Below are positions 8,881 to 32,319 of a stretch of 64,000 nucleotides of DNA, one piece after another (position 1 is the first letter of the stretch; every line of letters starts with the position of its first letter). A program made the position numbers and the translations under genes. The stretch is from an uncultured Acetatifactor sp. (GTDB taxonomy: Bacteria > Bacillota > Clostridia > Lachnospirales > Lachnospiraceae). The stretch lies in contig CAZGVI010000013.1 in the NCBI GenBank assembly GCA_964529395.1, positions 5,147-69,146 of the forward strand. The letters are read 5' to 3'. The notes under the pieces are model-generated. The model worked only from the letters and a program-made list of their open reading frames with translations, was not told the DNA's origin and did no database searches.

Positions 8881-8951
8881 ACATTCCTCTCTCCTACATA
8901 TCACAGGCTATGCCTTCAGGCTTAATTTGACTCTACGCATTCACATTGCGG

Positions 8952-10691: not shown

Positions 10692-10743
10692 AAAAATAGA
10701 AATTGAGCAAAAGAAGTCTGGATTTTTGAGAAAGAGGGTTTTT

Positions 10744-14633: not shown

Positions 14634-16205
14634 TTACTGGATATCCAGGAAAGCGTTCTCCACTGTCAGGCAGTAGTACAGATCGCCGTCCACGGCTACG
14701 CCAGTGTAAGACTGATTGTGTACCGTGCCGTCAGCGAGAGTTACTTTCGCCACCACATCGGCAGTGTCCCCATTGTTGGTAATGGTCAGCTCCACATTTG
14801 CACCGTCCATATCTGTCATAAAGGTATCCCAGTTCCAATCGCACTCAGCCGTGGCGATACCCTCATATCCCGCACCCCAGCCAAAATTGTCGGCACGCAT
14901 TACACCGTATTCCTTGTAATCGGCGTTGGCGTCTGCGGAATGTACATCCGCCACGTTCTGCAGTACTACCAGGAAGTTGTGCCAGTTGGCCAGACCGTCC
15001 GTATAGTTTACAAAGTTTACAGTTACAGACTCACCGGAGGGAACGGCTACAACATCCGAAAACTCGCTCCAGAAACCGGTACTGCAATCTGTGGCGCCCA
15101 CTACTGTGCCGGAAGTGGTCACTGCGCTGTGATCAATGGCCACAGGCTCCGCCTCAACCTCCGCGGGAGCTTCCGCCACGGATTCAACGCTGGCGTCGCC
15201 CTCCAGATACAGGCTTGCAACCTGACCGTCCGTCAGAGCCTTATCAAAGAAATACATCTCATCCACAAATCCCTTGTAAATGCTGTCCCAATAGTTGATA
15301 CCGAAGAAACACTCAAAATTGTCATCGGCAGTCAATACATCCGGAGCCAGACCGCCGTAGGTTCCCTCGGCTGCGTCAAACACCAGCTCGCCGTTCAGAT
15401 ACAGCTTGGCCGCTACTCTGTCCAGACCGTCATCCGCAAAATTATATATATCTCCGGTAGCCACCAGCGTTACCAGAACCCATTCCTTCTTGCCGTGAAT
15501 GGAGTCATCTGCCGCATATACCCAGGGCCATACGCCGGTCTCCGAATTTCTGTCCCATACTACAGGGAAGATCTTGGCATTGCCGGTTCCCCATTCGGAC
15601 TGGGTAACATTGATCCACTTAACGGCAACACCCTCATCCGTGTCCGCCATACCCATATCGCTGCCGATCTGCAGGGTAGGTCCGTAGTTGGAGAGTCTGT
15701 CGGCGTTGAGCCAGAAAGAGATGGTATACTCATTGGTATTCAAGGCTTCCACCGGAAGTTTCAGGCCGAAATTGCCGTCAATATAAGTACATTTTCCCAC
15801 AGGGCCGTCCGCATACTGTACAACGATGGGCTGCTCCGCGCCCTCCTTATCCAAATAGGTAGAACTCTCCACCACGCCGTAGGTTGCGCCGGTATTAGCG
15901 CCCTTATCCTCAGACTGGATCATGGTCAGAATGCCCTCGTCCGATCCGTCCATGGCAAAGTGATACAGTGCCTCGGGCAGGGGCTCCGCCTCGGCCAGAC
16001 CACCGGTGGGCTCCTCTGTGCTCTCCTCAGGAGTGCTACTCTCCTCAGAACTTTCTACCGGAGCGCTGCTCTCCTCAGAGCTGGACTCCACTGTAGACTG
16101 CTCTGTGGAATCATTTACCTGCTGTTCGGGAGTGCTGCCGCATGCGGTTAACATGGACATTACCATGGCTGCGCTTAAAAGCGCTGCAAAAACTTTCTTT
16201 TTCAT
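14634..16205 (-). CDS. Lipoprotein with LamG/ConA-like jellyroll domain and C-terminal beta domain (candidate surface glycan-binding protein)
   Basis: Lipobox MLTAC; S/E-rich linker; YTISFWLN, WVLVTLV, KLYLNGE and KGFVDEMYFFDKALT LamG motifs. Confidence 0.7.
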   Translation of the reverse strand: MKKKVFAALLSAAMVMSMLTACGSTPEQQVNDSTEQSTVESSSEESSAPVESSEESSTPEESTEEPTGGLAEAEPLPEALYHFAMDGSDEGILTMIQSEDKGANTGATYGVVESSTYLDKEGAEQPIVVQYADGPVGKCTYIDGNFGLKLPVEALNTNEYTISFWLNADRLSNYGPTLQIGSDMGMADTDEGVAVKWINVTQSEWGTGNAKIFPVVWDRNSETGVWPWVYAADDSIHGKKEWVLVTLVATGDIYNFADDGLDRVAAKLYLNGELVFDAAEGTYGGLAPDVLTADDNFECFFGINYWDSIYKGFVDEMYFFDKALTDGQVASLYLEGDASVESVAEAPAEVEAEPVAIDHSAVTTSGTVVGATDCSTGFWSEFSDVVAVPSGESVTVNFVNYTDGLANWHNFLVVLQNVADVHSADANADYKEYGVMRADNFGWGAGYEGIATAECDWNWDTFMTDMDGANVELTITNNGDTADVVAKVTLADGTVHNQSYTGVAVDGDLYYCLTVENAFLDIQ

Positions 16206-16275
16206 ATCTATTACTCCTCCTATTCTCGCCTTTTACATGGCCTTATATCAAAGGGCGCGAGCAGCGCCCTCCTCA

Positions 16276-17853
16276 TTATGAATTGTCAGCGATCTGTTGT
16301 TCGTATGCGGCGATCTCCTCATCGGACAGCACATTGTAGCCGTTCGGGCCAAAGTAGTCGATCATGGCCTGCGCGTGGTACAGATTCGCTTTCTCCGTAG
16401 CCTCGGTGGCAAAGTCCGCCGCCTTGGAAGTTCCCTTATCTACCAGATCATGAATGCCAATCTTGTTAAAATATTCATCGCAGTAGTTCCAGTAACCGGC
16501 TATGGAAGTCCATCCGAAAGGAATAGGCTGCATACAGCTTGCAAAATAATTCTTCCAATGTGCCACATGCTCCTCATCCATACCCTTGGTGTACATGGCG
16601 ATATAGCTGTCCCAGATCTCTGCGTCCTTGGTGATGGGAGCGGGCATAACGTCATATTTCAGAGCCAGGCCGGTGGCGTTCACGATGGACTCGTCATTAT
16701 AGGCCTCAAGCCTTGTCTTCCAGCCATCCAGTCCGAAACTCATAAACTTTAACAGTTCATATGCCTCCCGGGGATACTTTGTACCCGTAGTCACACCGCC
16801 GAAGTCGATGGTAGCGATGGAATGATGATCCGCAGAGGCATCCTGCTCGGATACCGCCGGTACCACATAGGGGATAACATCCAGATTATATTGCTCAAAT
16901 CCTTCCGTAGCCCAGGTTCCCTGATAGGTCCAGAATGCCTCAGAGAACATTGCCACATGACCGGTCGCGCCAAACCATGCCTCCCAGTCGCCTGCCCAGT
17001 CTTCCATCTCCTGCGTCTCGGTGACAGGCGCCACATAGCCGCCCAGTTTCAGATCCGCGAAGTCCTGCTCGCCCACGGCCCACACACTCAGGTCAAAGGT
17101 CTTGCCGTTATATCCGAACTCTCCGATGATATCCTGACTGGCCGCTATGCCGTAATAGGAATCCAGCCTGTTGTACACGCCCAGTCCGTAATAAGCCATA
17201 CCGTCCGGGGAATCCAGCACCGTACAATCCTTGATCAGCTGGATCATCTCGCTCCAGGTCCAGTCCATGCCGGGTACGTCTACGTTCAGCGTCTCCAGCA
17301 CATTGCGGTCCACATACATCACGCCGGGGAAGAACTTGACCGGCACGCCGTATCTGCCGCTTGTCTGGAAAGTGCCGAGACCGGCGCTGTTCACGGTATC
17401 CGCCAGATTCTGGGTCTCGGGATCCGCGTTCCAATACTCGGAAATATCCAGCAGCAGCATATTGGACAGGGCAAAATCCGCGTCGGAATACATGATACAA
17501 TCCGGAGCGTTGCCGTTGCTCACCAGCGTATTCAGCGTCGTGTTGTATGTAGCCACGTTCTCATATACGGGGTTGACTTTGATGTTGGGATACAGCTCCA
17601 TAAATCTGTCCGCCAGATATTTTACCGTCTCATCCTGATCAAAGTGGAAATAGGTCAGTTCAATGTTGTCATGGGTCAGATCAGCCGCCGGATGATATGT
17701 GATCCCATTGATCACGACCTCCTCCGCTCTCTCTGCTCCGCCGCCTTCGTTTCCCGCCTCTCCGGCATTACCGCTCTCGTTGCCGCACCCAGCTATGCCG
17801 GTCACCATGGCAGCAGACAGCAGCAAGGCCAAAAACCTGTTTCTCTTTTTCAT
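16276..17853 (-). CDS. Sugar ABC transporter solute-binding lipoprotein
   Basis: Lipobox GIAGC; SBP_bac_1-like motifs (FMELYPNIKV, YPREAYELLKFM). Confidence 0.88.
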   Translation of the reverse strand: MKKRNRFLALLLSAAMVTGIAGCGNESGNAGEAGNEGGGAERAEEVVINGITYHPAADLTHDNIELTYFHFDQDETVKYLADRFMELYPNIKVNPVYENVATYNTTLNTLVSNGNAPDCIMYSDADFALSNMLLLDISEYWNADPETQNLADTVNSAGLGTFQTSGRYGVPVKFFPGVMYVDRNVLETLNVDVPGMDWTWSEMIQLIKDCTVLDSPDGMAYYGLGVYNRLDSYYGIAASQDIIGEFGYNGKTFDLSVWAVGEQDFADLKLGGYVAPVTETQEMEDWAGDWEAWFGATGHVAMFSEAFWTYQGTWATEGFEQYNLDVIPYVVPAVSEQDASADHHSIATIDFGGVTTGTKYPREAYELLKFMSFGLDGWKTRLEAYNDESIVNATGLALKYDVMPAPITKDAEIWDSYIAMYTKGMDEEHVAHWKNYFASCMQPIPFGWTSIAGYWNYCDEYFNKIGIHDLVDKGTSKAADFATEATEKANLYHAQAMIDYFGPNGYNVLSDEEIAAYEQQIADNS

Positions 17854-17995
17854 TCTTCTCCTCCTTTTTTGCCATGAAAGCGTCCTAATCTTTTCTATAC
17901 AACATTTATATCATACTCCGCAAAAAAAATCCATATCTTTTATATAAAAAACTTAACTTTTTTAGTCAAAAATAAAATTTTATGAAAAACCAACT

Positions 17996-18034
17996 AAAAA
18001 AAGGTGCTGAAATTGTGAAATATTTCAGCACCTT
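17996..18034 (-). terminator. Terminator after permease 18082-19224
   Basis: aaggtgctgaaat/atttcagcacctt 13-bp stem with U tract on the minus strand. Confidence 0.75.
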
Positions 18035-18081
18035 CTCCAGTAAACAAATATATGGCTAAACTTATTAAACGTTTTCGGGCA

Positions 18082-19224
18082 TTACTCTCCTGTGATACCC
18101 ACCCGGTCGATACTCTCCACGAAGTATCTCTGCAATACAAAATACATGAGCAGAATGGGCAGGATACTGAGCATGGTTCCCGCCATGCTGATGGACTCGT
18201 TTAACGTGACCGCCCCGCTGGCCTCCGTCTGGGCATAGCTGTTATAGTTTGCCGCGAACTTCTGCAGCTGTACCACCAATGTAGTCCATTTGGACTGGGT
18301 CATGACGCCGGACACATACATCCGGGTCAGATAAGAGTTGTTCCAGTACCACACAAAGGAGAACAGGAACACTGTAAGTATCGCCGGGGCCGCGGAGGGC
18401 AGAGAGATCCGCACAAAGGACTTAAAATATCCCGCGCCGTCGATCTGGGCCGCCTCTATCAGCACCTTGGGTACCTGTTTGAAGAACTGATAAAAGATCA
18501 GGATAAATATGGAGGCGTTGATACCCTGAGCCAGCAGCGAGGGCACCACAAATGCCCATAGCGTACTGAGTATCTTCAGGTTCGAGTACAGCACATAGGT
18601 GGGGATCATCGTTACCTGGCTGGGCAGGATAAAGGTGAAAATGATAATGCCCATCATGATCTTTTTGCCGGGAAACTCAAATCTCGCCAGTCCGTAACCC
18701 ACGATGGAGCAGGACAGCACGTTCAGCAGCGTGGGAACGCCCGCTATGATGATGCTCAGGCCCAATACCGGCCAGAAGTTCATGCTGGAACCAGCCTGGG
18801 CATAGTTTTTGAAGTTAAGGCTGCTGGGGATCCAGTTAATGGAGGAATCCAGCAGATCGTCCAGCGTCATCAGGGAGCTGCTGAGCATATACAGGATCGG
18901 ATACAGATAGATGAATCCGATACAGATCAGCAGAGCATACACCACGAACTGTTTCAGGAAACCCTCTTTTTCTCTGGAACCCATAAAGAACTTTTTGATC
19001 CGGTCCTTCTCCACATCTGTCAGCTTGTGAGGTTTCCAGTTCCATTTTTCCTTAGCCACGGCTTTGTTTCCGGTACCCTTGGATCCGCTCTCAGCAGCCC
19101 CGGAAACTGTTTTCGTAGTATTGGAGACTGTTTTAGTAGTCTCGGAGACTGTTTTAATAGTCTCCACTGCCGTCGTAGGTTGAGTATTTGCGCTTTTTCC
19201 TTGCTTTTTCAATCTTCCTGGCAT
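18082..19224 (-). CDS. Carbohydrate ABC transporter permease (MalG-like) with repeat-containing N-terminal extension
   Basis: EAA loop EAAQIDGAG; 6 TM segments; start uncertain (overlaps upstream gene by 71 nt). Confidence 0.88.
   Translation of the reverse strand: MPGRLKKQGKSANTQPTTAVETIKTVSETTKTVSNTTKTVSGAAESGSKGTGNKAVAKEKWNWKPHKLTDVEKDRIKKFFMGSREKEGFLKQFVVYALLICIGFIYLYPILYMLSSSLMTLDDLLDSSINWIPSSLNFKNYAQAGSSMNFWPVLGLSIIIAGVPTLLNVLSCSIVGYGLARFEFPGKKIMMGIIIFTFILPSQVTMIPTYVLYSNLKILSTLWAFVVPSLLAQGINASIFILIFYQFFKQVPKVLIEAAQIDGAGYFKSFVRISLPSAAPAILTVFLFSFVWYWNNSYLTRMYVSGVMTQSKWTTLVVQLQKFAANYNSYAQTEASGAVTLNESISMAGTMLSILPILLMYFVLQRYFVESIDRVGITGE
19106..19168 (-). repeat. 21-bp imperfect tandem repeat x3 encoding ETIKTVS/ETTKTVS/NTTKTVS
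   Basis: actgttttcgtagtattggag / actgttttagtagtctcggag / actgttttaatagtctcc. Confidence 0.85.
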
Positions 19225-20221
19225 TGCGGATTCCCCTCCTTTCGATACGCTTTACGGTTCTCGCCTCTTTCTTTCTCTCCCGTTTCGCGCGTTTCACCTG
19301 TCGTTCATATACGTCCTTGCGAGCCATCAACAGCACCGCGAATACCACCACGATCAGCACTACCACCAGAGAGTAAAGCCATGCCATGGCGGATGCGTAG
19401 CCGTAGCCCTTCTCCTTGGTTCCCGAGAACATGGAATCCTGGATCAGAGTGATGATGGCATTCTGCTCATTGCCGGAGATAAACACCACCGTATACACCA
19501 CGTTCAGCAGGATCATGGGTTTGATGGTGGGCAGTGTGATCTTCCAGAAACACTCCCACCCGGAACCGCCGTCGATCTGCGCCGCCTCATACATGGAACT
19601 GTCTATCTTTTGCAGGGCGGACAGGAAGATCAGGATCTGAACGCCGGAGTACCACAGGATCGTTATCATATTGCTGAACAGCTCCGTGATACTGCTGGCC
19701 AGCGACCTGGGCAAAAAACCCGAGATCGCGTTGCCGATGGCCTGGGTGTCAATGGTGGAGATAGTGGCCGCGCCCTGGTCCGCCAACATCCCCATCACAG
19801 GACCGCTGACCACGATCACCGGCAGGAAGAAGATCAGCCGGAAGAATCCTTTGCACCGGATATTGCCGTTGAGCAAAATAGCGATGATCAGCGCGAACAC
19901 TACGATCACCGGCACCGATATAATGGTGCTGAACAGGTACTGCATCAGTTGGGGGGTAAAATCCGTATCCACCAACAGGATCTGCGTGTAATTGCCCAGT
20001 CCCACAAAATTAAAGTTCTTGCCCATGGGAGTGATACGGATATTGTTAAGGCCGTACCAGAAAGAGCTGCCCATGGTGTAGATCAGGAAGACAGCCGCGC
20101 CGATGATCCAGGGAGTCACGAAGATCAATCCGGTGATGGCTTCCCGCCGGGCCAGACGCCCGGGCTTGATTTTAACTTTCGCCTTTTTTTCTTTTCTGCT
20201 CTCTTTACTCATCGCCATCAC
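19154..20221 (-). CDS. Sugar ABC transporter permease (MalF-like)
   Basis: MYEAAQIDGGSGWECFWKITLP EAA motif; basic C-terminal tail. Confidence 0.9.
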   Translation of the reverse strand: MMAMSKESRKEKKAKVKIKPGRLARREAITGLIFVTPWIIGAAVFLIYTMGSSFWYGLNNIRITPMGKNFNFVGLGNYTQILLVDTDFTPQLMQYLFSTIISVPVIVVFALIIAILLNGNIRCKGFFRLIFFLPVIVVSGPVMGMLADQGAATISTIDTQAIGNAISGFLPRSLASSITELFSNMITILWYSGVQILIFLSALQKIDSSMYEAAQIDGGSGWECFWKITLPTIKPMILLNVVYTVVFISGNEQNAIITLIQDSMFSGTKEKGYGYASAMAWLYSLVVVLIVVVFAVLLMARKDVYERQVKRAKRERKKEARTVKRIERRGIRNARKIEKARKKRKYSTYDGSGDY

Positions 20222-22407
20222 TCACCTGCCTTATAGGACAAACCTTCAATGGTCACGCCGTCCACTGTCACTGCGTCCTGGTTGTAGTTGATATAGAATA
20301 CTACGCCGTTGTCATAGGTTACTTTGTTTACGCCCTCCGCCAGTTTCTCATGTCTGACGATCATGGCGTCCCCGGTCAACGCCGCTACCTGCCTGAAGTC
20401 CGCGTCATACTCTATGATGGTATCCTTGTAGGAAGAATACTTGGTGCTGTACAGGTCGGCGGAATTGGTATAGATCAGATCCGCCGAATCCTCATAGGTC
20501 ACATAGAAGGAAGGATATACCCCGGACTCTATCATCTGCAGCCTGAACTCCTGCTTGTTGGCCTCAAAGTTCACATACTCCGAGTACATGGGGACGATCC
20601 CTTTGAGCACGATGGAGAAGAAAGGAACCTCCTCGTCCTCATACATGAAATCGGAAGTGCCCAGCGGCATATCGATCATGGCCTCCGTGTAGTTCCACAG
20701 ATAGGCAAAGGGCTTTTCCAGGATCAGGCTGGTCTGTTTGGATATGTCAGCAATACTGCTCTCATAGGCATCCGCCGTGAACAACCGGTCATAATAACTG
20801 CCGCTGTAGCTGTAGGAAAACAGATTGCCCGTGATGCCCGCCACCGCCAGATTATCCACGCCCTTTGCGGTATAGCTCTTAACAAACTTATCCAGATTGT
20901 AATCGCTTCTGTTGGGCAGCAGATAGTTGAAGGTATCGTACACATAATCTCTGGTCTGGATCTCCAGCCTTCTCTTATTCACTTTTTTCACGATATTAAA
21001 GGTGGTATTGCTCTCCGCGGGGTTGGCCCGCAGCGCGTCGTTGTACAGGTAAACGTCATAGCCTGCGGATTCCGAATCCTGGATCAGATCCGTCAGCGCT
21101 CCTGTTCCGCCGATCTTACCGTCCGCTTTGTATTTGCTGATGGGGATCTGGTACATGCCGCCCTTCTGCCAGCCCTTGTAAATGCTCAGCAGCGTGTTCA
21201 CACCCGCGCTTTGCAGTTCCCCGAAGATCTCCCGCACCTGGTCCACATCCGTCATGACCACCGCCCTGGTGGAGATCAGGAACTCCTCTCTGTCTGTCCC
21301 CAGGAAATCCACCCGGGTCTTGTAGCTGTTGTCCCGGCGCTGTATCAGGTTATTGTCCAGCAGGTAATTGCGGTAAGCCACCGCCATGCCCGAATATCCC
21401 GCATCCTCTCCGGAGAGCAGTATGTAGCGGACTTTCAGATTGCCGTGAGTCCTGTCCGCCTCCACGCTGGTCATGGTTCCGGAGTTGGAATTGTTCAGGG
21501 GCTGAATATAGGTCCGGCGCAGTAAAAACCGCGCGTAACATCTGTTGTAATCCACCATGACGCCGTTGGGCTGGGCCTCAATGCTTGCCCTTTTTTCCCC
21601 CTCCTCCACGATGGCCAGATAGGCCAGCCCATCGTCGGTGTGGGCCATGCCGAACACAGGCGCCAGTACTTTCTCCGATTCGTTGACCGTCTGGTATCTG
21701 CCCCACAGCAGAGTCTCGGTGGTGGATTCCGTAAAGCCCGCGTCCGCGCCGTAGATCATCTGGGAGTAACCGCTGGCGTAGCGCCCGTCCTTATCGTCCA
21801 GATAGATCAGCGCGCCGTTGCCGTCCGGAATGAACATGTAACCCGCCTGATTGTCCAGATAGCTGTAACCAAACATGGGGAAGAGGCTTACCGTTCCGAT
21901 ATAGGAGTCGGTTCCGTTCTCCACGATGGAGTCCTCCGGCACCTCCGCCACCAGTTCGTCCCCCTCCAGAGTCACCCTCACCGTAAGGCCGAAATCATAT
22001 TCCTTCCAGTAGATCCTGGCTGCAAAACCATTGTCCTCATAGCTGTAGTCGATGGTGTTGGCGCAGCTCACCAGATCCACCTGATAGGTGTCGTTGGCAT
22101 TTTTGATGGCGCTGAGCACCACGCCGGACTGCATGTAGGCCGTCCATGTCTTGTTGTTGGCTCCGTTGTCGTCCTCCTCGGAAAGGGTGGATAAAAGGAG
22201 CGCTCCCGTAGCCTTATTTTTCAATATAATGGACAGCGTAGGCTCATAGAGGTACAGTTCATAGCTATCGCTCTCCGCCACCTTGCTGTAATCGGCCGGA
22301 ATATCCCCGGCCGCCCGGGCTGTCATACTGAATTGCGGGATCGACAGCACCAGCAGAAAAGCCGCCACAAGGATACAGATACTTTTTTTCAATCCTTTAA
22401 TTGCCAA
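20218..22407 (-). CDS. Secreted DUF5696-like protein
   Basis: Signal peptide ending ARA; GYMFIPDGNGALI and PVFG motifs; probable TTG start at 22407 after GAGGTGG (track start 22470). Confidence 0.7.
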   Translation of the reverse strand: MAIKGLKKSICILVAAFLLVLSIPQFSMTARAAGDIPADYSKVAESDSYELYLYEPTLSIILKNKATGALLLSTLSEEDDNGANNKTWTAYMQSGVVLSAIKNANDTYQVDLVSCANTIDYSYEDNGFAARIYWKEYDFGLTVRVTLEGDELVAEVPEDSIVENGTDSYIGTVSLFPMFGYSYLDNQAGYMFIPDGNGALIYLDDKDGRYASGYSQMIYGADAGFTESTTETLLWGRYQTVNESEKVLAPVFGMAHTDDGLAYLAIVEEGEKRASIEAQPNGVMVDYNRCYARFLLRRTYIQPLNNSNSGTMTSVEADRTHGNLKVRYILLSGEDAGYSGMAVAYRNYLLDNNLIQRRDNSYKTRVDFLGTDREEFLISTRAVVMTDVDQVREIFGELQSAGVNTLLSIYKGWQKGGMYQIPISKYKADGKIGGTGALTDLIQDSESAGYDVYLYNDALRANPAESNTTFNIVKKVNKRRLEIQTRDYVYDTFNYLLPNRSDYNLDKFVKSYTAKGVDNLAVAGITGNLFSYSYSGSYYDRLFTADAYESSIADISKQTSLILEKPFAYLWNYTEAMIDMPLGTSDFMYEDEEVPFFSIVLKGIVPMYSEYVNFEANKQEFRLQMIESGVYPSFYVTYEDSADLIYTNSADLYSTKYSSYKDTIIEYDADFRQVAALTGDAMIVRHEKLAEGVNKVTYDNGVVFYINYNQDAVTVDGVTIEGLSYKAGE

Positions 22408-24448
22408 TTCGATACACCACCTCTCCGCCGATGGCGCTGATAAATTCAAATACCTGCGCCCATAGTACATAGATGATAAAGAGTAACAGTGCCATGATCA
22501 ATATGGTAAACGCCGTCAGACACAGGACCTTGAAAGTCTCCTTGGCCGTGTAGTTATTGACTTCCTTGACCGCCAGTACAAACAGCACCGTCACCCAGGC
22601 ATAGATGGCGCAGTAGCCAAAACTGATCAGGAACTGCTCGTTGATCGTCACCACATGGGACAGCAGGAATATCACCGGGATCAAAGTCACATAGGGGGTC
22701 AGGCAGTACGTAAAGGAACAATAGATCTTCTTTACCGTGCCCTCACCGTCATTGATGGTACACACCAGATAGTTACAGGCGGTCAATGCCAACAGCACCA
22801 CCACCACCATGCCGATATCGGAAAAGATCTCATAGCGCCCTTCCCGCACGGTCTTTTGCAGGAAACCGCACAGATACTTGTTGATCATGTATTCCACGGT
22901 GAACAGCACCACCAAAAGGTTGGCTGTAAGCAGGGACGCCCTGCCCTCCCTGGCAATGCCGTAGCAGCCGTCTATAGGATGTCTCATAAAGTACCAGGCA
23001 TATTTAAAGTCCCTGACGCGCCTGTTCTTGCTCAGATTCTCTGAGACCTTCCGCAGGGGCGCGAGGATACCCTTTTTCTTATCCAGCGCTTTCACCGCCT
23101 TGCAGACAGCCCAGAAGATCACGATCGCCCAGATAATGGGAACGATCCATTTTTTCAGCCAGAGGTTACGCACCTCCCAGGTGGCGTCGGAATAACCCTG
23201 ATAGTCCTTGGCCAGCTTGGCGTAATACCGGGCCATCTCGTAGTTCTCCTCCTGGAAATAGGCCCTGCCCATAGCCATGTTGGCATAGTCAAACATGCTG
23301 TTCATCTTCAGCACTTCCTGAAGCGGCGCCTTGCTCTCCGTATAACGCCCCGTGGAATAAAGGTTCAGCGCCTCATGCAGCAGGTCGGTGAACTCGGTGG
23401 GTTCATAGACCTGTATCTGCGCCTTGTCGGAGTCCAAGATATACAGCCGGTCCTGCAGGTCCACGTCAATGGCGCTGACCACGGTACACAGACCCACGCG
23501 CTGGGTCCCGTCGTCGGAACCGCCAAACACAAAGAGCGCCTCGCCCTCGCTGTTGAACTCATACACAAAACCCTGCTGAGATACCATGAATACATTGTCG
23601 TGATTGCCCGCAGCCACAGCCGCCGGTATATCGTCGTAGGTATCCGGCTCGATCACATTCTTACCGGCGATGTTCAGCCGCTTTAAAGTATTCTCCTCCT
23701 CCCCTCTGGTCACCGTGTAGATCAGGCCCTTGCCGTCGATACAGAGGTTGTCGGGTGTGGAGGGAATATTGGAGACCATCTTTGCCCTCTGGGCCTTGGT
23801 TGCCAATGCCCTGCGGATAATGATCATGGGAGAATTGGAGGCCATATTGGTGCCGAAGTACCCCAGGAAAGTTCCGCCGTCTATGGGAGAGATCTCCACG
23901 ATGCCGTTGGTGTTGGACTCACAGATCACATACATGATCCCCGCGTCGTTGACCACCAGCTTGATGGGCAAAAAGCTCAGTGCCTCGCCGTACAGGGGAG
24001 AATCCGGTTTGCCGTAGCGGTTTAACATCTGTCCCTCCGGATCAAACTCAAACACCGCCTCCGCGTCCCGGTCGGCCACATACACATGCCCGTTCTCCGT
24101 CACATACACGCCCCGGGGGGATACCAGCGTTCCCTCGCCGATGGTCTGCAGCAGATTGCCCTCCAGATCGCCCACCACAATACGGGCGTTGCCTGTATCC
24201 GCCACATAGACCCTGCCCTCGTCCGTCACATGCAGATCGCTGGGACCGCTCAGCGCCTCGTCGTCAAACTTAGTGATGGTCTCGTAGGGCAGGTACGCCG
24301 TCTGTGTCTGGATCATATAGCCGTAGCCGTCAAAAGTAAAGGTCTTGTAAGGCGCGTCCGCTCCCGCGGAAATCATGCTGCCAAGCAGCAGCACCGCCGC
24401 AAAAAGGCTTAAGGCTATTCGTTTGAAATGTTTTTTCATCTTTTTCAT
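22397..24448 (-). CDS. NHL beta-propeller / TPR / Yip1-domain membrane protein
   Basis: Signal peptide; NHL repeats (PSDLHVTDEGRVYVADTGNARIVV, PRGVYVTENGHVYVAD); TPR-like helices; C-terminal multi-TM Yip1-like region. Confidence 0.75.
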   Translation of the reverse strand: MKKMKKHFKRIALSLFAAVLLLGSMISAGADAPYKTFTFDGYGYMIQTQTAYLPYETITKFDDEALSGPSDLHVTDEGRVYVADTGNARIVVGDLEGNLLQTIGEGTLVSPRGVYVTENGHVYVADRDAEAVFEFDPEGQMLNRYGKPDSPLYGEALSFLPIKLVVNDAGIMYVICESNTNGIVEISPIDGGTFLGYFGTNMASNSPMIIIRRALATKAQRAKMVSNIPSTPDNLCIDGKGLIYTVTRGEEENTLKRLNIAGKNVIEPDTYDDIPAAVAAGNHDNVFMVSQQGFVYEFNSEGEALFVFGGSDDGTQRVGLCTVVSAIDVDLQDRLYILDSDKAQIQVYEPTEFTDLLHEALNLYSTGRYTESKAPLQEVLKMNSMFDYANMAMGRAYFQEENYEMARYYAKLAKDYQGYSDATWEVRNLWLKKWIVPIIWAIVIFWAVCKAVKALDKKKGILAPLRKVSENLSKNRRVRDFKYAWYFMRHPIDGCYGIAREGRASLLTANLLVVLFTVEYMINKYLCGFLQKTVREGRYEIFSDIGMVVVVLLALTACNYLVCTINDGEGTVKKIYCSFTYCLTPYVTLIPVIFLLSHVVTINEQFLISFGYCAIYAWVTVLFVLAVKEVNNYTAKETFKVLCLTAFTILIMALLLFIIYVLWAQVFEFISAIGGEVVYRIGN

Positions 24449-24469
24449 TTCTCTTTCTCACCTTTTCCT

Positions 24470-25339
24470 TTACTTGATGCCGGAGTGTGCCATGGTGTTC
24501 ATGACATTCTTCTGCAATATGATAAACAGTACCAGATTGGGGATAAACATGATCAGGGACGCAGCAGCAGCCATACCCTGTCCGGCCACGGTGTTGTTGG
24601 CGTTGGCCAGGGTGTTCATGTAGAAGGTCAGCGTCTTCATGCTGTCGTCGTTCACAAAATAGTTGGAAGTCTCCATATTGGTCCAAACCTGCTGGAACAC
24701 CAGAATGGAGGCCGTGGCGATGGCGGGCTTTATCATGGGGATGATGATCTTCAGATACACCTGCCAGTCTGTGGCGCCGTCCATATAGGCCGCCTCCATC
24801 AGGGAGTCCGGCACCTGGTCCACAAACTGTTTCACCAAAAACAGTGCTACCGGCATCGCCACCAGAGGCAGTATATGCGCCAGGTAGCTGTCCACCATAC
24901 CGGTCTTGCTGATGACCAGATACCTGGGGATCAACACGGCGGTAGCCACGAACATGATGGCGGTCTGGTTGATGTTCAGCAGCGTGTTCTTGGCTCTGAA
25001 CTTGATCTTGGACAGCGCGAAGGCCGCGCAGGTGGTCAGCAGCAGGGACAGAAAGATGGTCACCAGCGTCACGATCAGACTGTTGAACACATAACGGCTC
25101 ATGGGGATGCCCGAGGTGCGGCTGGCCTTGATCAGGCTTTCAAAATTCTCCAGCGTGGCGTTTCTAACAAAAAAGGTAGGAGGAAACGCGAACAGCTCTT
25201 CCATGGGCTTAAACGCATGGTTGATGATGAATACGATGGGTAAGGCCATGAAGATGACCAGAGGCAGCAGGATCACGATGATCTTGATCTGGCTCTTCTC
25301 AAATCTGGTCGGATTGATGCGATGTCCTTTATATGCCAT
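24470..25339 (-). CDS. Carbohydrate ABC transporter permease (MalG-like)
   Basis: LMEAAYMDGATDW EAA motif. Confidence 0.9.
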   Translation of the reverse strand: MAYKGHRINPTRFEKSQIKIIVILLPLVIFMALPIVFIINHAFKPMEELFAFPPTFFVRNATLENFESLIKASRTSGIPMSRYVFNSLIVTLVTIFLSLLLTTCAAFALSKIKFRAKNTLLNINQTAIMFVATAVLIPRYLVISKTGMVDSYLAHILPLVAMPVALFLVKQFVDQVPDSLMEAAYMDGATDWQVYLKIIIPMIKPAIATASILVFQQVWTNMETSNYFVNDDSMKTLTFYMNTLANANNTVAGQGMAAAASLIMFIPNLVLFIILQKNVMNTMAHSGIK

Positions 25340-25357
25340 ATCTTATTTTCCTCCTTT

Positions 25358-26281
25358 CTAAAAATCGTCTCTCTCTCCAAAGAGCCTGTCGGCCACCTTG
25401 GAGAACAACTGTACAATGAGCAGCAGCACTACGGATACCGCCGCCGCGTAGCCCATCTCATAGCGCAGGAACCCGTAATCCTCGATATGGTTCACGATGA
25501 GCTGGGAGACATAGCCCGGCGAAGGGTTGCCCGTCAGCAGCGTAAAGATCGTACCCGCCTGAAAAGCGTTGACGATGGCCATGACCGCCGCGAACAGCAT
25601 CTGCGGTTTCATGCTGGGAATGACTATGTAGATCATCTCCTGGAACCTGTTTTTGATACCGTCGATGGCTCCCGCCTCATACAGGGATTCATCCGTATTC
25701 AGAATACCGGCGATCAGGGATAAAAAGCCGATACCCATGCTGGACCAAAGGCCGATGACAATGACGATGGGCAACAGATAATTGGCATTGATCAACCAGA
25801 TCACCGGCTCGTTCAATACACCCAGACTCATGAGCCAGCTATTCAGAAGGCCGGTCTGGTCGCCGGAAAAGATCACCTTCCACACCACCGTCATGGCTAC
25901 GCCCGCCGTCATGCTGGGGGAGTACAGGATCAGCGCGAATACCGTCCTGAAACCCTTGGTCAGATTGCACAGCGCCCAGGCCAGGACAAAGGACAGTACA
26001 TAGCCGCCCACGCCCACGATCAACGCGTATACCACGGTGTTGGGCAGGACATGCTGCATAAATACCTCGTCGTTGGTCAGCACGGTTATGTAATTCAGAA
26101 AGCCTACCCAGGACGGGAACTCGATGGCGTTAAAGTTGGTGAAGGATAATACCACCGCCAGCAGCACCGGTACCAGGATGAATACGGTAAAGGCCAGACC
26201 GTAGGGCGCGATGAACAGATATCCGTTTTTGTTGTTGCTGCGCCTGCTTATTTTATTCTTTTTTACTTTGCTATCAGCCAT
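25358..26281 (-). CDS. Sugar ABC transporter permease (MalF-like)
   Basis: [16 protein letters not shown] motif; likely start MADSK at 26281 (track start 26293). Confidence 0.9.
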
Positions 26282-26296
26282 AAATATCCTCACCTC

Positions 26297-29263
26297 CTAT
26301 TCCCTTCCCAATATCTCACGTATGGTCTCTATCGTGGGTATATTGTAATCTGTAATGGTATTGCCCTCGCTGTCTATGAACTCAAACTCCTCCAGCTTGC
26401 GGTTAAACTCACGGTTGATGGTCTTTACCGCCTTGTCGATGCGGGTCTGGGCTGTCATACGGTTGACCACGATATCGTTGAAGGCGTTGCTCATCTCACG
26501 CTCCAGCAGATAGGTGCCGGGCACTCTGGCCACATCCACCACATAACTCATCTGCTCCGCTATGATCTGCTTGTCACCGGTGTCCCAGGGCAGCTGCATG
26601 AAAGCGTCCATATTGGCCGTGGTCCACATATATTCCTTGCCGTAAGTGATCTGCAGGGTCTGCCCGAACTCGGCCTGCACTTCTGTGGAAGACCACCATT
26701 TCACAAATTCCCAGGCTTTAGCCTCCCGCTCGCTGTCGGACTTGAAGATCACGCTGCTCTCCGCGCAGCCGCAGACGGTGCGGTCGATGCTGCCGTCCTC
26801 CTGCTCCATGCCGGGCACCAGGGCGATGCTCCAGGAGTTCTTCAGCTCCGGCGCCGCGTTGGACAGCAGGTTGTAGGCGGCGTAATCCGCCACGCCGATA
26901 GGCATGTCGCCGTTGCGAAAATGCTGGTAAAAATTGTCGATATTGATGGGCATATTATAAATGGTAAACAACTCTGTCAGATATGTAAAACCGTCCACAG
27001 ACTCCGCGCTGCCCAGCGCCGTGCCCTCCTGGGCGGTAGCTCCGTACAGAGAGCCGCCAAACTGATGGATCAGCGGGGTCGTACCGTGGAAGTTCCGCAT
27101 CAGCAGCATACCGGACACAGGCTGGTAATAATTCAATCCCCTCATCTGCAACTCCGGCAGCATGTCGATCACATCCTGCATGGTATCGGGAACCTCCAGC
27201 CCCAACTTTTCCAGAATATCGCTGCGGTAGTACAACACCCAGAAATTCATGGTCTCCGGCATGGCATATATGCCGCCGTTAATACAGGATGTCAAAAAGA
27301 ACCCGTCCTCATAGGGAGCCGCGACTTCCCTGAAATCCTCAAACTGCGTCATCTCCACCAGCGCACCGCGGATAGCCAGCTCGTAGGGGATGGTATAGTT
27401 AATGCCCGTGGCCACGTCCGGCGCCTTGCCGGAAGTGTTGGCCAGCACCAGTTTATATTGGTCGGGCATAATGGAAATATCCACCTCTATGCCTGTCTGG
27501 GGGGTAAAATATTCGTCGATCATCTTCTGCATGATCTGCACATACTGGCTGGAACGGTTTACCCATACCTGTAAGTGTTCCGGATCCGTGTTGCCCGTGG
27601 AGTACGCCTGGTCGGTAAAGGAGGTCACAAACCGCTTGATATTCATGCCCGCAGACGCAAAGATATTGGGCTTTTTCGGGAGCTGCGCATCCTCCTGATA
27701 TATGTAGATCCTGTCGATAGCTATCTTGTTTTTGATCAGGGTGTCCACCGTGTTTGCCAGATGCCTGTTGGCGCTGGAGGGGCTGGTACACAGCTCCGCC
27801 ACGCGGAAAGGTATCTCGTCCGGCTCCTCCGCCAGAGAGATCAACTGCTGGGCGGCAATACTCATGGAGGACAGAACGGCCACCGTTCCTTTTTTGCCTG
27901 CGTATTCTTTCACCGTATCCTGCAGGGCATATAGCTGATCCGCATACCCGTACAGCTGCTCCTCGATATCCGGAATATAACGGGATAATTTCAGGTCGCG
28001 GTATTTGTCCGCATTGTTGCCCGCCACCTTGGTGATCTCCAGAGACAGGTCATTGATGGCCGACATGATCTCGTCCAATCCTTCCAGTATCTCCCGGATC
28101 TCATCAATGCTGATGGTGAAGGATATGGTGTGGGTACCTTTCTCCAGATACACGCTTATATTCTCACCGCTCTCATCTGTGAGGGTGGCCGTCTTATATT
28201 TGGTGGTATAAGCCATGGGATAGGATTCCAACAGACTGTTAGGAATCTCCCCGTCTATCTCCACGTTAAGAAATACCGGAAAATCATTTTTATCAGACTG
28301 CCGGTAATTCATCCCTATGTAATAGTACCCGTCCCGGTACACATCAAATTGATAGGTCACTTTCTGTCCCGCGGAGACAAAGGAATCGGAATCAATGGTG
28401 TTGAGGACCGTGTCCTTGACTTCGTAGGGATACAGGCTGGTATCATACTCCGCCACGCCGTGAATAGCGGAATCGTTTCTGTAGGTGAAGTCTTCTCCCT
28501 GAATCTCGATCAGCTCCTCGCCCGCCGCCTTTTGACTGCCGGTGTACTCCGGGATCTGCTCCGGCGCGGCCAGCACCAGCCCTCCCAGCAAGAAGTTGCC
28601 TTCGTTTACTGCCAGCCGGATCTCGTGGCTGCCTGCCTCCAGCTCCAGCGTCAAAGGACGGCTGCGCCGGTAACTGCCGTCGCTTAAGAATTTGCGTTCC
28701 CACTGGATCAGTTTATCCGGCACTGTCACGATCTCATTGCCGTAGCGGTCTACGGATTTCTCGCCGTCCCCTATCCAGGTGGTCTCAAACTCCAGATTAC
28801 GGCACTCATAATAGGGATACTCCCCGTCCACAGTCATGGCCAGACCTATGGGCAGTACGGATTCGTCATAAGACAGGTAATCAAAGCCCAGCCAGTACTG
28901 CGCTGTCTCAGGTACGTCCACCTGCACAGTGACCGCATCCCCTATGTGGAGATCCACCACGGCGTCCGCCAGCTCATAACCTCTGGTCTCGGAAGTGATA
29001 TTGCCGGACTCTGCACCGGTTATTTGCTCTGCCGCTCTCATGACCACATCGTCACCGGTATATACGGGCGCCTTATAACCGGCGCTCACCTTGGTGTAGT
29101 TGTTGGTGATCATCTCATTGACATACCCGCCGTCAGAGGTGTAGGTGGACGCGGCACTCCCGTCATCTGTCTCAGCCCACAGCTCCCGGCAGGGAACGGC
29201 AGCCAGAAGCATGGTGACAGCAAGCACTGTGGCCGTCAATTTTGCACCGCTTTTCCGCTTCAT
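26297..29263 (-). CDS. Very large extracellular solute-binding protein (N-terminal beta-sandwich/CBM-like domains + C-terminal SBP)
   Basis: 988 aa; signal peptide; C-terminal SBP_bac_1-like region (SGKAPDVA, AWEFVKWWSSTEVQ). Confidence 0.8.
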   Translation of the reverse strand: MKRKSGAKLTATVLAVTMLLAAVPCRELWAETDDGSAASTYTSDGGYVNEMITNNYTKVSAGYKAPVYTGDDVVMRAAEQITGAESGNITSETRGYELADAVVDLHIGDAVTVQVDVPETAQYWLGFDYLSYDESVLPIGLAMTVDGEYPYYECRNLEFETTWIGDGEKSVDRYGNEIVTVPDKLIQWERKFLSDGSYRRSRPLTLELEAGSHEIRLAVNEGNFLLGGLVLAAPEQIPEYTGSQKAAGEELIEIQGEDFTYRNDSAIHGVAEYDTSLYPYEVKDTVLNTIDSDSFVSAGQKVTYQFDVYRDGYYYIGMNYRQSDKNDFPVFLNVEIDGEIPNSLLESYPMAYTTKYKTATLTDESGENISVYLEKGTHTISFTISIDEIREILEGLDEIMSAINDLSLEITKVAGNNADKYRDLKLSRYIPDIEEQLYGYADQLYALQDTVKEYAGKKGTVAVLSSMSIAAQQLISLAEEPDEIPFRVAELCTSPSSANRHLANTVDTLIKNKIAIDRIYIYQEDAQLPKKPNIFASAGMNIKRFVTSFTDQAYSTGNTDPEHLQVWVNRSSQYVQIMQKMIDEYFTPQTGIEVDISIMPDQYKLVLANTSGKAPDVATGINYTIPYELAIRGALVEMTQFEDFREVAAPYEDGFFLTSCINGGIYAMPETMNFWVLYYRSDILEKLGLEVPDTMQDVIDMLPELQMRGLNYYQPVSGMLLMRNFHGTTPLIHQFGGSLYGATAQEGTALGSAESVDGFTYLTELFTIYNMPINIDNFYQHFRNGDMPIGVADYAAYNLLSNAAPELKNSWSIALVPGMEQEDGSIDRTVCGCAESSVIFKSDSEREAKAWEFVKWWSSTEVQAEFGQTLQITYGKEYMWTTANMDAFMQLPWDTGDKQIIAEQMSYVVDVARVPGTYLLEREMSNAFNDIVVNRMTAQTRIDKAVKTINREFNRKLEEFEFIDSEGNTITDYNIPTIETIREILGRE

Positions 29264-29580: not shown

Positions 29581-32319
29581 ATGTTCCAGAGAAATCAGAA
29601 CTTTAAAGTCGCAGGTTGTCTGGTCACGGCGGCCTGTCTGCTCGCCTCCTGCGGGGCTCCGACGGGAGAGGCGCAGGAGGGCGGGGCAGCAGCCAGCCAG
29701 GTGACAGAGGTACATACGGGGGTGACAGCCAGCGAAGAGACGGGAGGTGTGACGGTTCCAATGGCTGATTATGTGATTCATACGAATACCTTGGCTCTGG
29801 ACGCATCCCATGGAATCAGCGATACGCTCTATGGGATCTTTCTGGAAGATATCAATCATGCGCTGGACGGAGGATTGTACGCGGAGCTGGTAAAGAACCG
29901 CTCCTTTGAATACGGCGGTCTCGCCGGGAATCAGGGCAAACACGGGTGGAGCGTCTGGCCCGGAACCGGAGACTCCTTCGACTTTTCCGTCATAGACGGC
30001 TCCGGGGACGGCAGCTGCCTACACGAGAATAATCCCCACTATGCCCGACTGACCAACAGGGACGAGACAGAGCGCCTTTACCTCTCCAACAGGGGATATC
30101 TGTCCGGCATGAATATTAGGGGCCAGGAGGATTATACCTTCTCGGTCTACCTGAAAAGCGCCGAAGGATATGACGGCACCGTTTCCGTGGAATTAAACCG
30201 CCAGGGGGCGACGCTGGCCAGGGGTGAAATTACCGACATAACCGAAAAATGGGCAAAATATGAGTTGACACTGTCGGCAGAGGAACAGACTGCCGGCGCC
30301 GATCTGGCAGATTCCGCGCTGACACTGGATCTGGGAATCAGCAGGGGCAGCGTGGACGTGGATATGGTGAGCCTGATGCCTGTGGATACTTATAAGAATC
30401 TGCCCATCCGCAGGGATCTGGGAGAGATGCTGGAAACTTTACATCCCGCTTTTCTGCGATTTCCCGGCGGCTGCGTCATTGAGGGACGAGACGAGGAATC
30501 CATGTACAGTTGGAAAGACTCTATCGGAAACGGCGCACGGCTGACCGTTGGAGACGTGACCACCACCGGCGGCATTGAGGTGCGGCCCCAGAGCTATTCC
30601 ATATGGAAAGGCACCCAGGGTCATCCCTACTATACCACTTACGGTATCGGATTCTATGAATTTTTTGAGCTTTGCGAGGCGCTGGACTGTATGCCCGTGC
30701 CGGTGCTGAACGCCGGTATGACCTGCCAGGTACAGAGTCCGAAATATATCGTCTATGACATAAACAGCGAGGAATTCCGCCAGTGCGTGCAGGACGCCTT
30801 GGATCTGGTGGAGTTCTGCCGGGGTGACGGTTCCACCCGCTGGGGCAGCGTGCGTATCGCCATGGGACATGAAGAGCCTTTTGCTCTGCGATATATAGGC
30901 ATCGGCAACGAGCAGTGGCAGTCCGAGTACTTCCAGCATTACCGCTATTTCGTTGATGCCTTTAACGACGCAGCAGAGAAAAATCCCGATCTTTACGGAG
31001 ATATCCGGCTGATCGTGGCCAACAGCACTTCCTCCGGAGATCGGGTGGGCTGGAACTATGTGGAGGACTGCGCAGACTGGGGGGATGAGATCACCGCTTT
31101 GGTGGACGAACACTATTACGAACCGCCCTCTTTCTTTTTCACCAACACCCACCGCTATGACAGCTATGACAGGGACAGCCAGGCGAAAGTATTTCTGGGA
31201 GAGTATGCCGCCCAGTCCAACACTCTGGAGGCGGCGCTGTCCGAGGCCGCTTATATGACAGGTCTGGAGAAAAACGGTGATGTGGTGGAGATGGCCTGCT
31301 ACGCGCCGCTGTTCGGCAACCGTCTACAGAGCCAGTGGAGCCCGGATATGATCTGGTTTGACAACACGACGGCATACGGCTCCGTGAATTACTATGTGCA
31401 GCAGCTGTTCGCAAACAATAAGGGCAGCGTAAATCTGCCCACGGAGCTGACGGTGGACACTGCCGCCTCCGGCGGGCTGTCAGGCAGGGCAGGACTGGGC
31501 AGCTGGCAGACCAGGGTGGCCTATGACAATCTCACCGTCACCGACAATGCCACGAGAGACGTATTGTATCAGGCGGATTTTGAGGACGGGGAGATCCCTT
31601 CGGATATGGATACCTGGGAGGGAGACTGGGCCGTGGAAGACGGCAGACTGATTCAAAGTCATACCGGCGATCCAAATAACAGCAACACCGGGGACAGCCT
31701 GTATTTCGGAGACACTGACTGGAGTGATTACACCCTTACCGTGGAGGCGGAAATCCTTTCCGGCGCCGAGGGATTCCTGATCCCGGTATGCGTACAGGAT
31801 CCCTCTAACAATCTGTTTTGGAATATCGGCGGTTGGGGCAATACGGTGTCCTGTCTGCAGATCGTCTCCGGCGGCAGCAAGAGCGGCCAGGTGTCCGGCA
31901 CCGTGAAAAACCTGAAACTGCAGCAGGGCAAGATCTACACGATCAAAGTGGTAGTGGACGGCAACCACGTGGAAGGATATCTGGATGACACCAAATATCT
32001 GGACTACACCTATCAGGCTCCTCTGGCGCTGTATGAGTCCGCCAGCGTGGACGACAATGGTGACATTATCATCAAGCTGGTCAATCCCACAGATCACGGC
32101 ATCTCAGTGGATACCCGGCTGGAAGATTTCTCCGCCGACGCATACAGCGATACCGCACAGGTGACAGTACTGTCAGGTGATTCTCTGAGCGCTGTAAACA
32201 GTTTTGACGAGCCGGAAAAGATGATCCCTTCCACGTCCGAGATCGACATAGGCGCATCCTTTACCTACGAGGCTCCCGCCTATTCCGTATCCATACTGCG
32301 GATAAGCGCTTCAAGATAG
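29581..32319 (+). CDS. Surface lipoprotein GH51 alpha-L-arabinofuranosidase with extra beta-sandwich domains
   Basis: Lipobox LLASC; FLRFPGGC, IGIGNE, FLGEYAA, ACYAPLF motifs; insertion domain before the C-terminal beta-sandwich. Confidence 0.88.
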   Translation: MFQRNQNFKVAGCLVTAACLLASCGAPTGEAQEGGAAASQVTEVHTGVTASEETGGVTVPMADYVIHTNTLALDASHGISDTLYGIFLEDINHALDGGLYAELVKNRSFEYGGLAGNQGKHGWSVWPGTGDSFDFSVIDGSGDGSCLHENNPHYARLTNRDETERLYLSNRGYLSGMNIRGQEDYTFSVYLKSAEGYDGTVSVELNRQGATLARGEITDITEKWAKYELTLSAEEQTAGADLADSALTLDLGISRGSVDVDMVSLMPVDTYKNLPIRRDLGEMLETLHPAFLRFPGGCVIEGRDEESMYSWKDSIGNGARLTVGDVTTTGGIEVRPQSYSIWKGTQGHPYYTTYGIGFYEFFELCEALDCMPVPVLNAGMTCQVQSPKYIVYDINSEEFRQCVQDALDLVEFCRGDGSTRWGSVRIAMGHEEPFALRYIGIGNEQWQSEYFQHYRYFVDAFNDAAEKNPDLYGDIRLIVANSTSSGDRVGWNYVEDCADWGDEITALVDEHYYEPPSFFFTNTHRYDSYDRDSQAKVFLGEYAAQSNTLEAALSEAAYMTGLEKNGDVVEMACYAPLFGNRLQSQWSPDMIWFDNTTAYGSVNYYVQQLFANNKGSVNLPTELTVDTAASGGLSGRAGLGSWQTRVAYDNLTVTDNATRDVLYQADFEDGEIPSDMDTWEGDWAVEDGRLIQSHTGDPNNSNTGDSLYFGDTDWSDYTLTVEAEILSGAEGFLIPVCVQDPSNNLFWNIGGWGNTVSCLQIVSGGSKSGQVSGTVKNLKLQQGKIYTIKVVVDGNHVEGYLDDTKYLDYTYQAPLALYESASVDDNGDIIIKLVNPTDHGISVDTRLEDFSADAYSDTAQVTVLSGDSLSAVNSFDEPEKMIPSTSEIDIGASFTYEAPAYSVSILRISASR

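Follow-up and report, generated by a model that had tools for sequence, protein, structure and literature searches.

A seven-gene transport core conserved across Bacillota families marks a probable arabinan capture and import cassette in an uncultured Acetatifactor

In a stretch of 64,000 nucleotides of contig CAZGVI010000013.1 from an uncultured Acetatifactor sp. (assembly GCA_964529395.1; this whole stretch is called the window in the following), nine co-oriented open reading frames (ORFs) on the minus strand, between positions 14634 and 29263, encode components of ATP-binding cassette (ABC) sugar importers together with an NHL/TPR/Yip1 membrane protein, a DUF5696 protein and a LamG lipoprotein. 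Our analysis indicates that this array is probably the arabinan version of a generic, Bacillota-wide cassette for glycan capture and import, which works with an MsmX-type ATPase encoded elsewhere. Its fixed part is a core of seven genes, in the order giant substrate-binding protein (SBP), permeases 1A and 1B, NHL/TPR/Yip1 protein, DUF5696 protein, and permeases 2A and 2B, and it is surrounded by glycosidases and a small SBP that vary with the substrate. The cargo side is ordinary and resembles the arabinan systems AbnEFJ/AraNPQ-MsmX; the seven-gene core has no counterpart in the literature searched. An initial annotation had already described the array, and an ORF check combined with Pfam searches placed all nine genes where it had put them and recovered every domain that it had named (Table 1).

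The strongest evidence for a functional unit is the conservation of the core, and the gene-neighbourhood comparison that had been proposed with the initial annotation was strongly positive. We compiled an orthologue set of 80 loci, one genome per species, with DUF5696 identities of 52-95%, and mapped the window proteins onto each of them. These loci are from Acetatifactor (the closest, 94-95%), Roseburia, Butyrivibrio, Agathobacter, Butyribacter, Oscillospiraceae, Ruminiclostridium, and others. The order of the seven genes is identical in 67 of the 80; another 12 contain colinear pieces of the core that are ended by contig ends, and the last one, which is truncated at its start and followed by an unrelated permease pair, is no real exception. 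The accompanying genes are found in varying numbers of these loci (SBP2 in 67, LamG and GH43 in 46 each, the downstream GH51 in 36, the regulator in 33, and the upstream GH51 in 27). Ten distant DUF5696 members, with only 23-30% identity to the window protein, were looked up one by one, and all ten are encoded within the same core, in which the giant SBP has 962-999 aa and the NHL/Yip1 protein 663-697 aa, with one pair of permeases between the two and another after DUF5696. This set includes Jeotgalibacillus (Bacillales) and Caldicellulosiruptoraceae, and a small SBP is usually encoded just upstream of the core. At every locus examined, the Yip1 gene is positioned directly upstream of the DUF5696 gene; the stop of the former overlaps the start of the latter by 11 nt in the window and by 8-17 nt in nine of the ten distant loci.

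The cargo of the distant loci is of several kinds. A beta-1,2-glucan set (compare PMC8861115) comprises a glycoside hydrolase (GH) family 94 oligoglucan phosphorylase, a PF10091 protein that we take to be GH144-like, a GH35 enzyme resembling IaSGT, and a GH3 enzyme. Other distant loci carry a BNR sialidase and a GH84-type enzyme, or a GH2 enzyme. As the distant loci keep the core while their glycosidase neighbours differ, the cassette is generic and its cargo swappable.

A comparison of the window proteins with their counterparts in the distant modules indicated which components follow the cargo. Permeases 1A and 1B are the most conserved (53-59% identity), and permeases 2A and 2B are at 35-50% (2A at 35-43%). 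Within the giant SBP, the SBP domain is 38-47% identical across cargo types, in contrast to 19-35% for the N-terminal parts that resemble carbohydrate-binding modules (CBMs) or are helical. The values are 32-38% for the NHL/Yip1 protein, 25-29% for DUF5696, and 21-26% for the small SBP. Permease pair 1 and the SBP domain of the giant SBP thereby behave as a cargo-independent unit, and the small SBP, DUF5696, and the CBM-like domains are the parts that vary with the cargo. The two permease pairs share only about 25% identity with each other (permease 2A is about 25% identical to permease 1A), and both pairs are therefore ancient in the cassette.

The giant SBP has an unusual architecture. Its signal peptide lacks a lipobox and is followed by two beta-sandwiches that resemble CBM6/35 domains (residues ~70-232 and ~250-385), a helical bundle (~387-510), and a CUT1-type SBP domain (~561-960). 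Both sandwiches were modelled by AlphaFold2 at predicted local distance difference test (pLDDT) values of 80-90, with the helical bundle following, and Foldseek related the sandwiches to CBM35 and CBM6 at a target-normalised template modelling (TM) score of ~0.70. Pfam searches at E-values up to 10 assigned no family to the N-terminal half, and some homologues of the protein have a precomputed CBM_35 match. The best PDB sequence match of the SBP domain is Lin1841 (3.7e-15). A lipobox is absent from all nine copies of the giant SBP, and an anchorless SBP is unusual for Gram-positive bacteria. In the region 49390-52925, the window encodes another oversized SBP, a 740-aa lipoprotein whose SBP domain is confined to residues 373-659 behind an extended N-terminal part. 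Two small ORFs without family, one of them for a lipoprotein, come before it, and there are no permease genes beside it.

The NHL/TPR/Yip1 protein likewise has a signal peptide without lipobox, which is followed by an ectodomain of about 400 residues and six predicted transmembrane helices (hydropathy; residues ~433-455, 504-522, 545-563, 580-600, 607-625, and 641-659). Its PDB sequence matches are the NHL propellers of TRIM2/3 and PknD. With DUF5696, which is also exported by a signal peptide lacking a lipobox, the cassette thus contains three such subunits, which bears out the non-lipidated secreted subunits of the initial annotation.

The DUF5696 protein belongs to a large family, with 4870 clusters at 50% identity in a library of 1.84 billion proteins. 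The ORF was called at 20218-22470, and a TTG codon at 22407 is the most likely start, as it results in a protein of 729 aa as in all homologues. The AlphaFold2 model (predicted TM score 0.74) consists of an N-terminal beta-sandwich, a (beta/alpha)8 barrel, and a C-terminal beta-sandwich. Foldseek placed GH129 first, with ZgGH129 (5opq) at 3.7e-25 and a query-normalised TM score of 0.62 and NagBb at ~1e-22, followed by GH101, GH36, and GH31. A PDB sequence search with the close orthologues alone (A1) gave only noise, and Pfam at E-values up to 10 found no second family. The profile of 82 diverse family members (A3) was needed to detect GH129, and it matched ZgGH129 at 1.1e-7 and NagBb at 1.6e-4. 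Because this match was achieved by sequence alone, DUF5696 is a remote GH129 homologue by both fold and profile, which is more than a shared fold.

Whether the glycosidase activity has been retained is a different matter. The residue that is mutated in the D486N variant of ZgGH129, which from the title of the PDB entry we take to be catalytic and located at the end of barrel strand 4, aligns with Gly/Asn in the window protein, and this column is variable among the 82 diverse members. The neighbouring column at the end of strand beta4 is acidic in 36 of the 82, and the second half of the barrel has no alignment with GH129. A catalytic aspartate of the GH129 type is thus not seen at the aligned position, which is a moderately firm negative because the alignment is remote. 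The residues that are kept throughout the family are E163, D195 (in an IPDGxGA motif), R297, Y338, R541, N613, E627, and N707; D195 and E627 are acidic in 100% of the members, D372 in 98%, and D367 in 93%. As the position in the operon is fixed whatever the cargo, the position of ZgGH129-486 is not conserved, and the protein evolves rapidly, we lean slightly towards a glycosidase-derived subunit with a cargo-adapted binding role, non-catalytic or non-canonical; that DUF5696 is a true glycosidase falls a little short of an even chance. The idea of the initial annotation that the secreted subunits trim arabinan is therefore doubtful, as DUF5696 is GH129-like in fold without conservation of the position aligned to the D486N site.

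The transport components themselves are those of CUT1-type importers. There are two SBPs with SBP_bac_1 domains (the giant SBP, at residues 576-870, and SBP2) and two complete permease pairs, each UgpA/MalF-like and UgpE/MalG-like by best NCBIfam matches, and the EAA coupling motif is intact in all four permeases. The ATPase is missing, as the initial annotation had noted for the array, and this is now extended to the complete 64-kb window: the scanned ORFs contain no ABC_tran domain, a Walker A motif was found in no frame, and neither of two matches to the ABC signature motif is located within an ABC ATPase ORF. At one orthologous locus from uncultured Clostridia (L060, 18579-19751), the operon ends with a MalK/MsmX-type ATPase gene, as identified by ABC_tran, OB_MalK, and TOBE_2 domains. 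In two further loci from uncultured Clostridia (L061 and L064), motif-matching ORFs are found at the same operon-end position, with the domains confirmed for L060 only; in all three, the ATPase ORF directly follows the GH43 gene and a gene for a GntR/LacI-type regulator comes next. These appended genes support the borrowed MsmX-type ATPase suggested in the initial annotation, and they argue for an ATP-driven importer whose ATPase is normally encoded elsewhere; here, a MalK/MsmX-type ATPase is likely supplied in trans. Permease 2B has a polymorphic low-complexity extension at its N-terminus (19066-19152, with TKTVS-like repeats), and in contigs from three runs about 85 nt of this region are swapped for 17-31 other bases.

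The cargo of the window points to arabinan. The best PDB match of SBP2 is 6rjy, listed as 'Arabino-oligosaccharids-binding protein' (AbnE; 3.7e-13, residues 62-453), which makes SBP2 a homologue of the arabino-oligosaccharide-binding AbnE with a correspondingly predicted ligand specificity. The LamG lipoprotein matches 5hon and 5ho0, the 'Extracellular arabinanase' AbnA, in the C-terminal domain (residues 607-843, 4.4e-15), and is probably an arabinan-binding protein of the cell surface. The GH43 and the two GH51 genes that had been reported as flanks are present, together with an additional GH31 gene. One of the GH51 enzymes, encoded by a divergently transcribed gene and with a CBM4_9 domain, is predicted to be surface-exposed because it is a lipoprotein; no recognised secreted endo-arabinanase is encoded within the 64-kb window. 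Given the AbnE-like SBP2, the LamG protein with its AbnA domain, and the GH43 and two GH51 enzymes, the predicted substrate is arabinan or arabino-oligosaccharides. The arabinan specificity proposed in the initial annotation thus holds for this window, with its AbnE-like and AbnA-domain-like proteins; it does not hold for the module as such, which is generic with swappable cargo. A SASA-type acetylesterase (41587-43101) and a GH27-like alpha-galactosidase (Melibiase_2; 46708-47838) are also encoded in the window and may belong to the same plant-glycan programme. Adjoining the surface GH51, the region 32392-37384 encodes a GGDEF diguanylate cyclase as well as a hybrid histidine kinase of 1062 aa that combines PAS domains with two receiver domains.

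The array had been regarded as one unit, and we had to modify this. From the giant SBP to permease 2B, the seven genes are separated by 21 nt at most or overlap. Permease 2B and SBP2 are separated by 228 nt that hold a strong hairpin with a T-run, which begins 44 nt past the permease gene and is followed by a promoter-like AT-rich stretch, and a second hairpin lies downstream of the LamG gene. As the terminator-like hairpin splits the core from SBP2 and LamG, the array in this genome is probably organised in two transcription units, the seven-gene core on the one hand and SBP2 with LamG on the other. We rejected the idea of a conserved terminator at this place, since a crude test found a comparable hairpin in only 12 of 67 orthologous loci; among the orthologous loci, permease 2B and SBP2 are 57 to 7259 nt apart, and the split appears to be lineage-specific. 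The boundary after permease 2B is a tolerated break point. Four loci (L019, L020, L025, and L027) have insertions of 4-7 kb exactly there, and the two that were checked (L020 and L025) contain genes for an S41 peptidase, a two-component system, AAA-ATPase/PDDEXK pairs, and an ABC exporter; these genes are unrelated to the module and were rejected as a clue to the substrate. The hairpin here and the insertions at the same boundary in relatives indicate that SBP2 is not obligatorily co-transcribed with the core. On the other side of SBP2 and LamG, between the LamG gene and the winged-helix regulator, two ORFs of low GC content (0.43-0.46; 11714-14542) encode a multi-pass membrane protein of 511 aa, whose sole match is a weak one to DUF6056, and a 309-aa protein without family. 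The closest genomes (L001 and L002) have only a 147-nt gap at this position, and the stretch therefore resembles an insertion specific to the strain; in some public contigs, 13629-14166 is skipped.

Table 1. Features of the cassette and its surroundings, with positions in the 64-kb window
Feature	Position	Strand	Evidence and remarks
GH31	5390..7723		Pfam; no signal peptide
GH43	7906..8904	-	Pfam; no signal peptide, cytoplasmic
GH51	8952..10454	-	Pfam; no signal peptide, cytoplasmic
Winged-helix (ArsR/MarR-like) regulator	10726..11670	+	HTH_24, HTH_5, MarR_2
LamG lipoprotein, 523 aa	14634..16205	-	Laminin_G_3; lipobox LTAC
SBP2 lipoprotein, 525 aa, AbnE-like	16276..17853	-	SBP_bac_1; lipobox IAGC
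Intrinsic-terminator-like hairpin	17997..18038	-	17-bp stem, minimum free energy -23.7 kcal/mol, T-run
Permease 2B (MalG/UgpE type)	18082..19224	-	BPD_transp_1, 5e-16; EAA motif at residue 257; start codon uncertain
Permease 2A (MalF/UgpA type), basic C-terminal tail	19154..20221	-	BPD_transp_1; EAA motif at residue 212
DUF5696 protein, 729 aa, secreted	20218..22407	-	Pfam DUF5696 6e-175, full length; signal peptide without lipobox
NHL/TPR/Yip1 membrane protein, 683 aa	22397..24448	-	Pfam NHL 1.9e-12, TPR_16 weak, Yip1 1.1e-8 (C-terminal)
Permease 1B (MalG/UgpE type)	24470..25339	-	BPD_transp_1, 7.7e-15; EAA motif at residue 182
Permease 1A (MalF/UgpA type)	25358..26293	-	BPD_transp_1; EAA motif at residue 206
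Giant secreted SBP, 988 aa	26297..29263	-	Pfam SBP_bac_1/SBP_bac_8, residues 576-870 only
GH51 alpha-L-arabinofuranosidase with CBM4_9, 912 aa, divergently transcribed	29581..32319	+	ASD1_dom, Alpha-L-AF_C, CBM_4_9; N-terminal lipobox

If these components work together, arabinan would be held at the cell surface, for which the LamG lipoprotein, the CBM6/35-like domains of the giant SBP, and the GH51 lipoprotein with its CBM4_9 domain are the candidates, and the GH51 lipoprotein could debranch or shorten the bound polymer. The anchorless giant SBP and DUF5696 would dock on permease pair 1 and on the Yip1 protein's NHL/TPR ectodomain, which would hold them at the membrane. DUF5696, being derived from GH129 and evolving as fast as the small SBP, may serve as the cargo-facing, glycan-handling subunit. 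Arabino-oligosaccharides would then be handed over to the AbnE-like SBP2 and imported via the permease pairs, energised by a MalK/MsmX-type ATPase, and the cytoplasmic GH43 and GH51 enzymes would complete the breakdown. We infer the physical assembly into one surface machine from the strict synteny, the translational coupling, the missing anchors, and the conservation pattern of the components.

Several points weigh against this model. The AlphaFold2 model of DUF5696 is of modest confidence (pLDDT 65.5), and that of the giant SBP reaches an overall pLDDT of only 52.6, with the SBP half modelled poorly. The placement of ZgGH129-486 falls at the weak end of a remote hidden Markov model alignment, and a non-canonical active site is possible, given that the window protein and about 72% of the family have D457 and D579. 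SBP2 and LamG are parted from the core by the terminator-like hairpin in the window and by unrelated genes in some relatives. Contigs from rodent-gut metatranscriptomes (X5, X9, X10, and X13) span the whole region, and such contigs also span the divergent promoter region, but their low and even depth is indistinguishable from DNA carry-over and is no proof of co-transcription.

Two alternative explanations have to be considered. DUF5696 may be an extracellular glycoside hydrolase or transglycosylase that uses non-canonical residues, with the Yip1 protein as its anchor and with ordinary ABC systems for two product sizes. Such an enzyme would fit the fold matches to GH129, GH101, GH36, and GH31 and the reach of the family profile to GH129, and it would supply the endo- or exo-activity that is missing when no secreted endo-arabinanase is recognised in the 64-kb window and the GH43 enzyme has no signal peptide. 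Acidic residues that could participate are conserved family-wide (D195, E627, D372, and D367) or present here (D457 and D579), and lipobox-like motifs, as for surface enzymes, occur in about 14 of the 82 diverse members. We nevertheless regard this explanation, although a serious rival, as rather unlikely, as the position aligned to the D486N site of ZgGH129 is Gly/Asn and variable, the column at the end of strand beta4 is acidic in less than half of the members, and the best-conserved residues lie outside of the usual catalytic strands. Furthermore, an enzyme with cargo specificity would not be expected at a fixed place of the operon across arabinan, beta-1,2-glucan, and sialoglycan loci. It is much less probable still that there is no complex at all, and that two ordinary, independent CUT1 importers and two unrelated envelope proteins share one operon through co-regulation. 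Each permease pair does have its own SBP and intact EAA motifs, and in this window SBP2 and LamG appear to form a transcription unit of their own. However, this cannot easily be reconciled with a gene order and content that are unchanged down to 23-30% DUF5696 identity in several Bacillota families, with the conserved start/stop overlaps, with the lack of an anchor in nine of nine giant SBP copies, and with a permease pair 1 and a giant-SBP SBP domain that stay conserved as the cargo changes.

The last-mentioned conservation also permits a more far-reaching idea within the cassette model, which we consider improbable. As permease pair 1 and the SBP domain of the giant SBP are conserved whatever the glycan cargo, they might not constitute a substrate-specific importer but an ATP-driven engine that holds and moves the extracellular assembly. 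The assembly of CBM-like domains, DUF5696, and the NHL/Yip1 protein would then pass polysaccharide chains on to the second, cargo-specific importer by capturing, feeding, or threading them. In that case, a type I ABC importer would act as a mechanotransducer, and the cassette would correspond in function to SusCD, but in Gram-positive bacteria.

Among the Gram-positive bacteria of the gut, Lachnospiraceae (Roseburia and Butyrivibrio included) and Oscillospiraceae are major fibre degraders, and the usual picture of glycan uptake in such bacteria consists of a single SBP and one permease pair. The fixed cassette is much larger than this single-SBP picture, and arabinan, beta-1,2-glucan, and sialoglycan are among its cargoes. 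If its parts form one machine, this would give DUF5696 and the bacterial NHL-Yip1 proteins a function, account for the retention of anchorless SBPs on the Gram-positive surface, and provide a genomic marker for glycan utilisation loci of Bacillota. With Butyribacter intestini TF01-11, Eubacterium sp. MSJ-13, and Jeotgalibacillus sp. S-D1, there are cultured carriers in which the system is directly testable.

Among the known systems, AbnEFJ of Geobacillus stearothermophilus and AraNPQ-MsmX of Bacillus subtilis are the closest on the cargo side. The window shares with them an AbnE-homologous SBP, the C-terminal domain of AbnA (here in the LamG protein), MalF/MalG-type permeases, cytoplasmic GH43 and GH51 enzymes, and an ATPase that is encoded elsewhere, as the gene of MsmX lies apart from its importer genes. 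AbnEFJ and AraNPQ have one permease pair and one lipoprotein SBP, to which the window adds a second permease pair, the anchorless CBM-bearing SBP of 988 aa, the NHL/TPR/Yip1 protein, and DUF5696. Unlike the systems linked to AbnA/AbnB/AbfA, the window lacks the catalytic domain of an AbnA-type secreted endo-arabinanase. Gram-positive polysaccharide utilisation loci, a term reportedly defined by Sheridan et al. in 2016 for Roseburia and Eubacterium rectale, resemble our locus, in which degrading enzymes (GH43/GH51), an ABC transporter, and a winged-helix regulator lie together in the genome of a member of the Lachnospiraceae; its double permease set, its Yip1 protein, and DUF5696 distinguish it from those described in the literature searched. 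This literature, with subscription-only papers and CAZy excluded, contained no mention of the seven-gene core, of DUF5696, or of NHL/Yip1 proteins linked to sugar transporters. As regards GH129, with the alpha-N-acetylgalactosaminidase NagBb and the 3,6-anhydro-D-galactosidase ZgGH129, DUF5696 shares the three-domain architecture and a detectable sequence homology, and it differs by the unconserved position aligned to the D486N site and by being embedded in a transporter operon at every locus examined.

The only precedent for the Yip1 component that we found in the literature searched is YknW. Of the YknWXYZ system of Bacillus, YknYZ is a MacB-type exporter that works with a membrane fusion protein, and YknW is not known to have an NHL/TPR ectodomain. 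YknW was described as a Yip1-family membrane protein that is accessory to an ABC transporter, and the efflux pump YknYZ was termed a non-canonical ABC transporter (PMC4887032). Both systems thus encode a Yip1-domain membrane protein beside ABC genes, and YknW sets a precedent for a bacterial Yip1 protein as an extra subunit of an ABC system. The partners in the window are type I sugar-importer permeases of the BPD_transp_1 family, and not an exporter of the MacB type with its fusion protein.

The initial annotation had called the array Sus-like, and this can be maintained only as a functional analogy, since Pfam found no SusC or SusD domains in any gene of the array or its flanks. Sus-like systems of Bacteroidota and the cassette have in common a fixed transport core, cargo-adapted binding subunits, a surface glycan-binding lipoprotein, a surface glycosidase, and swappable enzymes. 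The difference is that transport relies on ABC permeases here, with neither an outer membrane nor a TonB-dependent transporter.

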